38,191 nucleotides of DNA from positions 1 to 38,191 of the forward strand of contig CAVLAC010000002.1 of NCBI GenBank assembly GCA_963661055.1. Direction: 5' to 3'. This stretch comes from a bacterium. Its GTDB lineage: Bacteria > Verrucomicrobiota > Kiritimatiellia > RFP12 > UBA1067. Positions 5,996 to 38,163 of the stretch are shown here, piece by piece. Within the stretch, counting starts at the first letter, position 1. Every line of letters begins with the position of its first letter. The notes beneath the pieces are model-generated. The model saw only the letters and a program-made list of their open reading frames with translations, did not search any database and was not told where the DNA came from. The position numbers were made by a program, and so were the translations under genes.

Positions 5996-6017
5996 GGTAG
6001 GGGCTGCCCGCCCTACC
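5996..6017. repeat. Hairpin GGTAGGG-GCTGCCCG-CCCTACC, apparently a collapsed member of the GGTAGG hairpin family. Lies immediately after the hydrolase stop codon.
   Basis: 7-bp perfect stem. Shares the GGTAGGGCGGGCAG / CCCCTACC halves (on the reverse complement) with the elements at 36.5-37.6 kb. Confidence 0.7.
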
Positions 6018-20163: not shown

Positions 20164-20190
20164 GGGGCGCAAGGGACTGCGCCCCCTACC
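20164..20190 (-). repeat. GGTAGG-hairpin family member. The + strand reads GGGGCGCA-AGGGAC-TGCGCCCC-CTACC.
   Basis: 8-bp perfect stem with the conserved AGGGAC loop and CTACC flank. Lies inside an operon, ending 3 nt before the GAGGAG SD of the next gene. Confidence 0.8.
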
Positions 20191-35556: not shown

Positions 35557-36477
35557 ATGGCAACTATCGCTAAGTCAATCCTCGAGAAGATCGGGAACAC
35601 CCCCCTCGTCGAGGTCTCTAATAAGCTCAACCAAGGCGGAGCCCGTGTGCTCGCTAAGGTCGAATACTTCAACCCAGGCGGCAGTGTGAAGGACCGCATT
35701 GCCCTCGCAATGATTGAAGATGCCGAAAAGAAGGGCATCCTCAAGCCAGGTGCGACCATCGTCGAACCGACGAGCGGCAATACGGGTGTTGGTCTCGCCC
35801 TCGTGAGTGCCGTTAAGGGCTACCATCTCATTCTGACGATGCCCGATACAATGTCCATCGAGCGCCGCAAACTCGCTGCTGCGTACGGAGCCGAAATCGT
35901 CCTTACGCCAGGCGCAAACGGAATGAAGGGCGCGATTGCCAAGGCGGAAGAGCTGAAAGCCGAGAAGGGTGCAGTCATCCTGCAGCAGTTTGAGAACCCC
36001 GCAAACCCTGAGCGGCACTATCAGACGACGGGTCCCGAGATTTGGACGGACTCCGATGGCAAGGTGGACGCTTTTGTCGCGGGTGTTGGCACGGGTGGCA
36101 CGCTTTCGGGCGTGGGCAAGTATCTGCGCGAGAAGAATCCCGCCGTCGCCATTTATGCCGTAGAGCCTGATACGAGCCCCGTTTTGTCGCAGGGCAAGTC
36201 GGGTCCGCATAAGATTCAGGGCATTGGCGCGGGATTTGTTCCGAAGACCCTCGATACTTCGCTAATCACGAAGGTCATCCCCGTCTCGGCGGAAAACGCT
36301 GGCACAACCGCACGTGCGGCAGCGGCGAAGGACGGACTCCTCGTCGGCATTTCTTCTGGCGCGGCACTTTGGGCGGCACTCGAGCTCGCGAAAGACCCGA
36401 GCTACGCGGGCAAGACGATTGTCGCACTTCTGCCGGATACGGGCGAGCGCTACCTCTCCACTTGGCTCTTCGCCTAA
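35557..36477 (+). CDS. cysK: Cysteine synthase A (O-acetylserine sulfhydrylase)
   Basis: Motifs [15 protein letters not shown] and GVGTGGT. Confidence 0.92.
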
Positions 36478-36487
36478 GTGATACGCT

Positions 36488-36513
36488 GGGCGGAAGGGAC
36501 TCCGCCCCCTACC
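36488..36513 (-). repeat. GGTAGG-hairpin family member. The + strand reads GGGCGGA-AGGGAC-TCCGCCCC-CTACC.
   Basis: Read directly from the sequence. Forms a composite with the + oriented copy at 36532-36558, since CCTACC...GGTAGG can also pair. Confidence 0.8.
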
Positions 36514-36531
36514 AACCTACGGCGTAATGCA

Positions 36532-36565
36532 GGTAGGGCGGGCAGTCCCTTGCCCGCCGTTTTTT
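36532..36565 (+). terminator. GGTAGG-hairpin family member (GGTAGG-GCGGGCA-GTCCCT-TGCCCGC) followed by T6. Likely the intrinsic terminator of cysK.
   Basis: 7-bp GC-rich stem followed by CGTTTTTT. Confidence 0.7.
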
Positions 36566-36849
36566 ATTCGCTTTATTTTGTGCCTGACAACATGCGGCAC
36601 GGCGGGCGGCAACCGTGCTAACCCGCCCTGATGCGGGCGTTTATAAAAAGGGCTCTAAGACATTCTATTGAGGGAACATCACGGACATTTCTGTCCGTGC
36701 ACCTAACCTCTTTTACGCACGAGGCGCGGCGAATCCGCCGCCTCGTGCCCGCCCGTCTCACTCCGCTCAACGCTCGCCCGCCCCTCCCGCTCCTCACCAA
36801 CCGTCTTTCTTGGCTTCGCCCGCTCTATAATTTTACACGACTACTTTGC

Positions 36850-36923
36850 GGGGCGGAAGGGACTCCGCCCCCTACCACCCCACAGTAGTGTAAGGTGGTA
36901 GGGCGGGCAGTCCCTTGCCCGCC
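36850..36923. repeat. Second composite unit: a reverse-oriented hairpin (36850-36876) plus a forward-oriented hairpin (36897-36923), bridged by a CTACCACC...GGTGGTAG stem.
   Basis: Nearly identical to the composite at 36488-36558 apart from the bridge sequence. Confidence 0.8.
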
Positions 36924-37125
36924 GCGTGATAGAGGTTGTAGGCGGCGAGGGGCGGGGGTTGCACGAGAGGAGCGGAGCGGCTCGCCGCCGTAAGAGAGAC
37001 ATTCTCACGCAACCCCAAACCTTGTCTAGGCAGGGCTGACTGAACGAAGTTTCTTGTCTAAGCGCGAAAGGCGGCAAGAGACCGCGCAACGACGGGTCGG
37101 GCGACACCCGCACGAGCCGCCCACC

Positions 37126-37248
37126 TCTTCTCTGTGACTCTGTGCCTTTGTGACTCTGTGTTAAAAACACATCTACAATTCTACAACTCTACACGGTTAA
37201 ACAACCGCTTCTCTCTCCCGATTCTCCCGATCTACACGGCTAACTCAT
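37126..37248 (+). repeat. Three consecutive triplicated-unit modules: TCTCTGTGAC/TCTGTGCC/TTTGTGAC/TCTGTG + TTAAAAACAC; ATCTACAAT/TCTACAAC/TCTACACGG + TTAAACAAC; CTCTCCCGAT/TCTCCCGA/TCTACACGGC + TAACTCAT.
   Basis: Read directly from the sequence. Each module is 35-45 nt. Confidence 0.75.
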
Positions 37249-37250
37249 AC

Positions 37251-37277
37251 GGGGCGGAAGGGACTCCGCCCCCTACC
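37251..37277 (-). repeat. GGTAGG-hairpin family member (GGGGCGGA-AGGGAC-TCCGCCCC-CTACC).
   Basis: Identical to the copy at 36850-36876. Confidence 0.85.
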
Positions 37278-37315
37278 AATCCGTTCCCATCCGTGTAATC
37301 CGTGGTTAAAAACAC
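37278..37315 (+). repeat. Triplicated-unit module AATCCGTTC/CCATCCGTGT/AATCCGTGG + TTAAAAACAC.
   Basis: Read directly from the sequence. Abuts the hairpin, as at 5996-6060. Confidence 0.7.
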
Positions 37316-37351
37316 AAAGCCGCCACTCAGCCCCGAAGGGGCTCTCTAAAA

Positions 37352-37391
37352 CCTCTCTGCGAACTCTGCGGCTCTGCGTGAGATAAACAAC
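37352..37391 (+). repeat. Triplicated-unit module CCTCTCTGCGAA/CTCTGCGG/CTCTGCGTGAG + ATAAACAAC.
   Basis: Read directly from the sequence. Confidence 0.7.
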
Positions 37392-37420
37392 CCCAAAATC
37401 ACACCTACCCACACGGGTAA

Positions 37421-37447
37421 TTGACGGGGGGGGTAATATGGTATAAT
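37421..37447 (+). promoter_or_regulatory. Promoter candidate: TTGACG (-35-like, 15-nt spacer) plus TGGTATAAT extended -10.
   Basis: Exact 9-mer at 37439-37447. Would give a leader of about 140 nt before ATG 37591. Confidence 0.5.
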
Positions 37448-37481
37448 ATTGTACTAATAAATGGCTGTAAAAGGCTGTTTT

Positions 37482-37569
37482 GGTAGGGCGGGCAGTCCCT
37501 TGCCCGCCGTTTGGTAGGGGCACGCGTCCCTGCGTACCCGTTGGTAGGGGCACGCGTCCCTGCGTGCCC
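37482..37569 (+). repeat. Three tandem forward GGTAGG hairpins (37482-37508, 37513-37539, 37543-37569) with stems GCGGGCA/TGCCCGC, GGCACGC/GCGTACC (one mismatch) and GGCACGC/GCGTGCC.
   Basis: Read directly from the sequence. All three share the GGTAGG flank and GTCCCT loop. They lie between the promoter candidate and the PEP-CTERM gene start. Confidence 0.85.
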
Positions 37570-37590
37570 GTAAAGAAAAGAGAAAGAAGT

Positions 37591-38163
37591 ATGAAAGAGC
37601 AGATAAAGAAAGTTGTTCTCGCGGCACTTGTCGCGGCGTTTGGTTTCGCCGCGCAGGCGGGCGATATGTATTGGACTATTAGCGGTGTTTCGTCCACAAC
37701 AGATAAACCGATGTCGGATGCCAATCCTTATACGGCATACTACTTCCTTTATGTTAATACGTCTAGCGTGAGTGAATCTTCTCTTGAACAAGTCGAGAAT
37801 ATAGTGAAGACTCAGAATCAGAGTGCCCTTGATTCGTGGGGGTCGAAATCGCAAAACCTAAAAACTGTAACAAGTACGGACGGTAATTTCACAAGTGAAA
37901 GATTTTATACTACTTCTTATTCTACTTCTGCACTTGCAATTATCATCAATGCGACGACCCTTGCGGACGCAACCTATTATATGGTTGCTAAAGTAGATGG
38001 AACTGGCAGTTATTATGTGCCAATAACAGATATCAGCAAAGATACTACAGCCACATTCGGCTCACAGGCGAACAATGTGTGGATTGCAATTCCTGAGCCG
38101 ACAAGCGGGCTACTTTTGGTGCTGGGGATGGCAGCGCTCGCCCTCAAGCGCCGCCGCGTGTAA
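37591..38163 (+). CDS. PEP-CTERM sorting-domain protein (190 aa), a likely paralogue of 17657..18208
   Basis: Signal peptide MKEQIKKVVLAALVAAFGFAAQA. C-terminus IPEPTSGLLLVLGMAALALKRRRV. Start trimmed from 37480 because the upstream part translates the hairpin repeats. Confidence 0.8.
   Translation: MKEQIKKVVLAALVAAFGFAAQAGDMYWTISGVSSTTDKPMSDANPYTAYYFLYVNTSSVSESSLEQVENIVKTQNQSALDSWGSKSQNLKTVTSTDGNFTSERFYTTSYSTSALAIIINATTLADATYYMVAKVDGTGSYYVPITDISKDTTATFGSQANNVWIAIPEPTSGLLLVLGMAALALKRRRV

Follow-up and report, generated by a model that had tools for sequence, protein, structure and literature searches.

The DNA window analysed here, the whole 38,191-nt stretch corresponding to contig C2 of a 1.88-Mb metagenome-assembled draft genome (152 contigs, 91.6% complete, 54% G+C), carries a short hairpin motif at several places, which raises the question of what kind of element these hairpins are. 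A sequence-only reading of the window had listed ten sites and proposed a REP-like structured element, acting either as an RNA stability or terminator module or as the target of a dedicated transposase-like enzyme. It suggested counting the copies genome-wide, recording their orientation relative to genes and searching for a RAYT gene, and it named shuffled controls and the pairing of further aligned copies as tests.

The window hairpins share one structural unit

We re-read the listed sites directly (the 1.3 kb at 36400-37700 and the two outlying sites) and scanned the window with the pattern GGTAGG-N7-GTCCCT, allowing at most one mismatch. All ten sites were present by both routes, and the arms quoted for them were correct and complementary. 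The same pattern gave a mean of 0.15 matches and a maximum of 2 in 100 dinucleotide shuffles, so that the ten sites clearly exceed the shuffled expectation. They comprise nine full REP copies and one degenerate remnant (5996-6017); the latter site had been described as a collapsed form and is better regarded as a decayed copy that has lost the loop and one arm.

The full unit reads T-GGTAG-[GGnnnnnn]-GTCCCT-[nnnnnnCC]-G and is 27-29 nt long, within the 20-40 bp of REPs. It consists of a 5-nt unpaired head, an 8-bp stem and a 6-nt asymmetric loop, and a single copy folds with a ΔG of -11.2 kcal/mol. The repeat thus stands as first read (GGTAGG plus a 7-8-nt arm), but its head boundary does not: the unpaired head is GGTAG, and the GG that follows forms the first two pairs of a stem of constant 8 bp (GG......//......CC), whose outer two pairs are always G-C. 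The features of the window are as follows (stem classes are defined in the next section).

5996-6017, minus strand: degenerate remnant, GGTAGGGGCTGCCCGCCCTACC, reading GGTAGGGCGGGCAGCCCCTACC on the minus strand
20164-20190, minus strand: REP class C (arm GGGGCGCA), solitary
35557-36477, plus strand: cysK (cysteine synthase A), 5′ of doublet 1; TIGR01139, 445 bits, cut-off 351
36487-36513, minus strand: REP class A (arm GGGGCGGA), 7/8 pairs with the last pair broken; left half of head-to-head doublet 1
36514-36531, no strand: linker of doublet 1, 18 nt (aacctacggcgtaatgca)
36532-36558, plus strand: REP class B (arm GGCGGGCA), 8/8 pairs, followed by GTTTTTTATT
36850-36876, minus strand: REP class A, left half of head-to-head doublet 2
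36877-36896, no strand: linker of doublet 2, 20 nt (accccacagtagtgtaaggt), member of the linker family aaccccacagtagcgtaaggt
36897-36923, plus strand: REP class B, right half of doublet 2
37251-37277, minus strand: REP class A, solitary
37482-37508, plus strand: REP class B, opens a direct triplet located in a PEP-CTERM 5′ leader
37513-37539, plus strand: REP class D (arm GGGCACGC), 7/8 pairs
37543-37569, plus strand: REP class D, 8/8 pairs
37582-38163, plus strand: PEP-CTERM protein gene with the B-D-D REP triplet in its 5′ leader

Doublet 1 begins 10 nt past the cysK stop codon. The solitary class C copy lies in a 62-bp intra-operon spacer, antisense to both neighbours and directly 5′ of the ribosome-binding site of the next gene. 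The remnant, which retains a B-type arm with its loop and 3′ arm collapsed, is found 2 nt past the stop of a 1493-aa ORF. A gene-free island of 1.1 kb (36560-37480) separates cysK from the PEP-CTERM gene and also holds other repeat modules, namely three short T/C-rich units and then TTAAAAACA. The T/C-rich modules recur beside REPs elsewhere in the genome, e.g. at C36:1060-1200 and C21:8600-8719, and may be part of the same REP mosaic.

Head and loop are fixed across the genome while stems covary

The exact head-plus-loop pattern occurs 192 times in the genome (97 forward, 95 reverse), and the reversed-pattern control gave 0 matches. A tolerant scan yielded the genome-wide count that had been called for: 206 copies, which group into 134 clusters and are spread over 78 of the 152 contigs. 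The head GGTAG is kept in 200 and the loop GTCCCT in 194 of these copies; a T precedes the head in 151, and a G follows the stem in 191. GTAG is by far the top 4-mer before 8-bp hairpins: it occurs there 203 times, and the median of the other 4-mers is 9. Searches with a covariance model of the REP sequences recover copies at 44-47 bits.

By their 5′ arm, the stems fall into at least seven classes. The four largest are A (GGGGCGGA, 70 copies), B (GGCGGGCA, 61), C (GGGGCGCA, 39) and D (GGGCACGC, 9), followed by E (GGTCGCGC, 7), F (GGGCGCGC, 4), G (GGTCACGC, 3) and singletons. Hybrid units occur occasionally, e.g. with the 5′ arm of class C and the 3′ arm of class A, and look like intermediates or recombinants.

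Pairing was assessed at 191 genomic sites chosen by head and loop alone, leaving the 3′ arm unconstrained. All eight stem positions form Watson-Crick pairs at 164 of them and at least seven do so at 182; stems therefore stay paired once more copies are aligned. In an alignment of 44 distinct sequences, eight of them from other genomes, two-sided changes are seen at 6/8 stem pairs, and 92.6% of paired cells are complementary, compared with 58.4% in shuffles and 32-52% with a slid partner; as this alignment was partly selected for pairing, the 191-site test is its unbiased version. Both results bear out the earlier claim of compensatory stem changes with preserved pairing.

REPs lie within 150 nt of 35 of the 304 contig ends, counted over all contigs of the source genome, and the true copy number is therefore probably higher than 206. 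They are a major cause of assembly breaks in this genome.

Inverted neighbours form head-to-head doublets

The 134 clusters comprise 80 singletons, 42 pairs, 10 triplets and two 6-unit arrays. Inverted neighbours are arranged as 26 head-to-head doublets, which hold 52 of the 206 copies and have gaps of 9-22 nt (17-22 nt in 25 of the 26). Only two pairs lie tail to tail, 72 and 148 nt apart. A doublet almost always combines a B-type unit with an A- or C-type unit (12 A/B, 7 B/C, 1 A/A), and the single homotypic case compares with about six expected from class frequencies. The linker family aaccccacagtagcgtaaggt is present in most A/B doublets genome-wide, and this conservation of linkers suggests that both halves may be copied together.

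A three-stem composite had been proposed for loci that combine a reverse and a forward copy. Structure prediction instead folds doublet 2 (36846-36927), as single-stranded DNA, into one long imperfect hairpin that is REPIN-like (ΔG -31.7 kcal/mol, z -6.55); the predicted fold of doublet 1 (36484-36562) is weaker. Judging from these models, the head-to-head doublets would act as composite units of the REPIN/BIME kind. Units in direct arrays are spaced by 3-4, 9-12 or 41-42 nt, the two 6-unit arrays run with regular periods of 31 nt and 38 nt, and longer mosaics (REP-linker-REP-linker-REP) recur in the genome.

A single-copy RAYT gene is flanked by REPs

The search for a dedicated enzyme identified a RAYT candidate on a contig other than that of the window (C77:6976-7428, minus strand; 150 aa). 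The protein scores 81.6 bits on the NCBIfam model NF047646 (REP_Tyr_transpos), a small margin over the cut-off of 80, and 31.8 bits on Pfam Y1_Tnp, while it reaches 27.4 bits on the IS200 model (cut-off 55). Alignment to Escherichia coli TnpAREP (PDB 4ER8; E 1.3e-4, ~22% identity) places H71-L72-H73 on H59-M60-H61 and Y124 on Y115, i.e. on the HUH motif and the catalytic tyrosine as assigned and numbered in PMC3479197. The HUH and tyrosine residues are invariant across nine Kiritimatiellae homologues. An AlphaFold model computed from the alignment of these nine homologues (pLDDT 86.5) has 4ER8 as its best PDB match in Foldseek (TM 0.73, r.m.s.d. 1.8 Å), compared with TM scores of about 0.5-0.56 for the IS200, IS608 and ISDra2 transposases. 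The C77 protein is a REP-associated tyrosine transposase (RAYT/TnpAREP), nearer to the RAYT clade than to IS200/IS605.

RAYT is single-copy, with one match in the source genome. The broader Pfam Y1_Tnp profile matched four ORFs, the C77 gene among them. The other three, of 340-350 aa (C51:6459-7523, plus; C39:9070-10167, minus; C13:20021-21088, minus), contain a Y1/HUH domain that resembles RAYTs only distantly (30-56 bits on NF047646, short of the cut-off) and is fused to a long C-terminal region, and no REP flanks were found at them.

On its 3′ side, the RAYT gene has one class A REP 8 nt past the gene end. Its 5′ side bears six identical class A REPs with a 38-nt period, starting 17 nt upstream of the start codon, and three more copies lie beyond this array. 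In total, C77 holds 11 REPs of the same classes as the rest of the genome. As REPs flank the RAYT gene on both sides, the locus constitutes a REPtron. The two loci are on separate contigs of a metagenome-assembled genome, so the linkage between the RAYT and the window depends on binning.

A GC hairpin tagged with GTAG at more than 100 copies corresponds to the definition of GTAG-tagged REPs (PMC3733652, PMC2817692). With some 206 copies, covarying stems and a REP-flanked RAYT gene in the same genome, the core proposal of a REP-like structured element served by a dedicated transposase-like enzyme is well borne out. We are highly confident that the hairpins represent a GTAG-tagged REP family of an uncultured gut Kiritimatiellae bacterium and that the single-copy RAYT on C77 is their cognate enzyme.

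RAYT and REPs co-occur within the genus

We counted at least 539 relatives of the RAYT clade, drawn from Kiritimatiellia, Opitutae and other Verrucomicrobiota. Homologues in six other genomes (G134, G128, G132, G018, G066 and G084) share 40-51% identity with the C77 protein, and each is flanked by REPs that are GGTAG-headed and have their own stem and loop type. Even the closest congeneric RAYT is only 51% identical; its REPs are nonetheless very similar. Of 101 family genomes sampled, 76 contain hairpins headed by GGTAGGGCG, the highest count being about 228 copies; reversed controls gave 0-3 matches.

A first set of 14 congeners had suggested an expansion unique to the source genome, an idea that was dropped when a covariance-model scan of 40 congeners revealed four further REP-rich genomes (66, 42, 20 and 17 matches). 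REP copy number ranges from 0 to about 200 among congeners. All four REP-rich congeners encode a RAYT (E 1e-27 to 5e-52), and it is absent from ten congeners with 0-13 model matches, save for one weak match (E 4e-4). Including the source genome, the tally within the genus is 5/5 REP-rich against 0/10 REP-poor genomes. Across the family the correlation is loose, with a match in about 15 of 22 REP-rich and about 29 of 79 other genomes, counts that mix true RAYTs with other Y1 proteins and come from incomplete genomes. We prefer the within-genus contrast because the family-wide comparison is confounded in these two respects. A loose correlation between RAYTs and REPs across genomes is also known from the literature.

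A minority of copies lies in frame within genes

By naive ORF classification, 96 of the 206 copies lay inside ORFs. This was an artefact, caused by the antisense REP being open in all three frames together with over-extended start codons, and it was replaced by a codon-usage test. Only nine of the 134 clusters (13 copies) then proved to sit in an uninterrupted coding frame flanked on either side by coding signal; on these gene calls, which are crude, the family is predominantly extragenic. All 13 in-frame copies are antisense to their host gene, which is the orientation open in all three frames.

Two of these loci could be compared with same-genus orthologues of 74-81% identity. In KsgA/RsmA (C81:7097-7972, minus) and CarA (C19:9114-10367, minus), the REP insertions are absent from the orthologues; they encode a peptide reading RGARDCAPY... 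in the alignments and occupy a variable loop or linker in both proteins. As the insert is specific to the source genome, we place both events after species divergence. From coding potential we infer seven further intragenic insertions (C38:5045-6592, C39:1932-4952, C51:10359-12986, C63:3346-5982, C63:6008-7738, C64:3838-4293 and C74:250-1419). Peptides added by in-frame REPs include RGARDCAPYQ and GAEGTPPPT. The CarA interdomain linker of one congener (G108, contig C60; alignment columns 187-245) contains another in-frame insertion made of short tandem repeats (RANVEVWKCENVEVCKCEN...); insertions or expansions seem to hit this linker repeatedly.

REPs in the leaders of PEP-CTERM genes

Class D is concentrated in one context, with seven of its nine copies in a conserved leader common to six paralogous genes. 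These small PEP-CTERM genes, whose signal peptides begin MKEQIKKVV..., have near-identical promoters and leaders (window 37421-37581, C50:13640-13840, C9:1-170, C36:1-120, C85:7150-7325 and C92:7200-7375). Each leader holds two or three REPs, the classes differing by paralogue (BDD, BDB, DD, AD, DA and AD), and these 5′-leader hairpins may be co-opted copies. The promoter reads TTGAC-(G)n-TAATATGGTATAAT; the poly-G tract in its spacer ranges, by paralogue, from 8 to about 17 G and looks like a slipped-strand phase-variation tract.

Improbable alternatives: RNA elements, host binding sites, CRISPR-like arrays or sponge RNAs

An obvious alternative is that the family mainly works as RNA, with intrinsic terminators or mRNA-stabilizing 3′ hairpins being selected on transcripts. 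RNA roles have been proposed in the REP literature (PMC3733652), REPs lie on the sense strand in the six paralogous leaders, and the copy at 36532-36558 follows cysK, continues into GTTTTTTATT and appears terminator-like in the scan. That copy, however, is the sole one in the window and one of only two in the genome with a terminator-like T-run (here T6): among 206 copies, a T-run follows the hairpin in two in the sense and two in the antisense direction. Among clusters with neighbours callable by codon usage, for which gene calls are crude, orientation relative to the flanking genes is even (16 same, 17 opposite), upstream 3′ ends and downstream 5′ ends are equally close (20:19), and the tandem:convergent:divergent ratio of 39:4:9 follows the genomic baseline of 925:111:96. 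Copies also occur in frame within genes, and a strictly kept unpaired head together with an asymmetric, one-strand loop better fits protein recognition of single-stranded DNA. Since T-runs are rare and orientation and context unbiased, the REPs are not a terminator or stabilizer family, and we regard a primary role in RNA as very improbable. The earlier suggestion of an RNA module accordingly does not hold for the family, although one member does resemble a terminator: judging from its sequence context behind cysK (TIGR01139), termination by the T6 copy is plausible, and this copy is likely a co-opted cysK terminator.

The hairpins might also serve primarily as binding sites of host nucleoid or topology proteins, the RAYT being incidental. 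Their BIME-like mosaic, with conserved linkers between classes, does resemble E. coli BIMEs, which bind IHF and gyrase (PMC2817692). The REPtron structure and the within-genus co-occurrence tie the REPs to the transposase instead, and a range from 0 to about 200 copies between congeners is typical of mobile DNA rather than of a conserved host function; such a primary host role therefore appears highly unlikely. Finally, the regular 6-unit arrays of 31-nt and 38-nt period could recall CRISPR arrays or, given the GGA in the antisense loop AGGGAC, CsrA/Rsm sponge RNAs, and the Rfam model RsmW does match 37480-37574 on the minus strand. Array intervals, however, measure 3-12 nt and are identical between units, or 41-42 nt and conserved, so they are not unique spacers. 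The RsmW match, which is due to three tandem GC hairpins with GGA-containing loops, scores 40.2 bits against a gathering score of 52, and no CsrA gene was found in the source genome (91.6% complete), with control searches positive; we thus judge the match to be a chance resemblance. A CRISPR or sponge function is hardly conceivable for these arrays. The reading as a GTAG-tagged REP family with its own RAYT remains the one that we develop below.

A proposed model for REP recognition and spread

Characterized TnpAREP enzymes bind the folded REP in a strand-specific manner, read bases of the GTAG head and the loop, and cleave and rejoin single-stranded DNA (PMC3479197, PMC8266576). In group 3 systems, which have small perfect palindromes, some loop positions tolerate no change and stems are read largely as structure (PMC8266576). 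By analogy to the E. coli, Stenotrophomonas and Marinomonas TnpAREP proteins, the unit described here would fold into a hairpin on transiently single-stranded DNA and be bound strand-specifically by the HUH/Tyr enzyme, which would recognize the unpaired GGTAG head and loop bases by sequence and the stem mainly by shape. Such recognition would explain why head and loop are fixed and the strand is defined, while stems could drift via compensatory changes into the seven or more classes. Cleavage and rejoining of single-stranded DNA would allow units to be copied or rearranged, and direct arrays could arise from local amplification. Catalysis on these particular REPs, as well as which unit actually moves, is inferred.

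A bolder proposal would see the stem classes as two functional partner types rather than products of neutral drift. The imperfect long hairpin of a B unit with an A or C unit would then be the RAYT's true substrate and the replicating unit, the RAYT would read only the GGTAG head and the GTCCCT loop, and continued activity in this lineage would account both for translated insertions within essential genes and for the varying sets of hairpins in the leaders of the PEP-CTERM surface-protein gene family. The scarcity of homotypic doublets (1/26 against about 6 expected) speaks for it. This scarcity would be explained equally well, however, if every doublet descended from a single ancestral A/B unit, and we consider the proposal rather unlikely.

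Our analysis documents a full REP/RAYT system, with repeat, transposase, REPtron, doublets and intragenic copies, for Kiritimatiellae, a PVC phylum that is mostly uncultured and has received little study. With head and loop fixed and at least seven compensatory stem classes, the family provides a natural series that predicts which parts of the hairpin are read by the enzyme. Annotators should recognize these REPs, as they break metagenome assemblies, yield spurious ORFs and extend housekeeping proteins by peptides. The current understanding of how REPs work is unchanged by the finding.

Comparison with known REP systems

The family is a lineage-specific REP of a well-described type, and GTAG REPs, REPtrons and intragenic REPs are already known. 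PMC3733652 describes all three as well as head-to-head dimers, PVC bacteria included, and reports intragenic REP insertion for Opitutus terrae and Rickettsia. The GTAG REP super-family (Nunvar et al. 2010, PMC2817692; Di Nocera et al. 2013, PMC3733652), to which O. terrae (Verrucomicrobia) contributes, shares with our family a short GC-rich hairpin with an unpaired 5′-foot GTAG, copy numbers above 100 in a genome, the coexistence of several stem classes, dimers in head-to-head orientation, a REP-flanked RAYT and occasional in-frame copies. The Kiritimatiellae REPs differ by their lineage-specific 8-bp stem and conserved 6-nt GTCCCT loop and, with crude gene calls, by having no detectable preference for 3′ ends or convergent gaps; their host, an uncultured Kiritimatiellae bacterium, belongs to a phylum outside both surveys.

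The resemblance to the E. coli TnpAREP/BIME system (Messing et al. 2012, PMC3479197, 4ER8) extends from the aligned HUH and tyrosine residues, the best fold match and the GTAG head to the alternation of two REP types in inverted orientation, although the Kiritimatiellae stem has no bulge. Its small perfect palindrome and conserved loop are closer to the group 3 pairs of Stenotrophomonas and Marinomonas (Corneloup et al. 2021, PMC8266576); judging from alignment extent, the C77 RAYT likewise appears to lack the ~20-residue C-terminal tail of the E. coli protein and to have extra N-terminal residues. The inverted pair of REPs around a short spacer, predicted to fold into one long hairpin, is shared with REPINs (Bertels & Rainey 2011, PMC3116915), but here the halves belong to different stem classes, so that the hairpin is imperfect, and there are only 26 doublets. 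Finally, Rickettsia palindromic elements and intragenic REPs offer a parallel to the in-frame copies, which are predicted to be translated and to occupy variable loops or linkers in housekeeping proteins; in contrast to the Rickettsia elements, which bear a CGTC tag, our family is tagged with GTAG, and its intragenic copies are a minority (about 13 of 206), all antisense to the gene.
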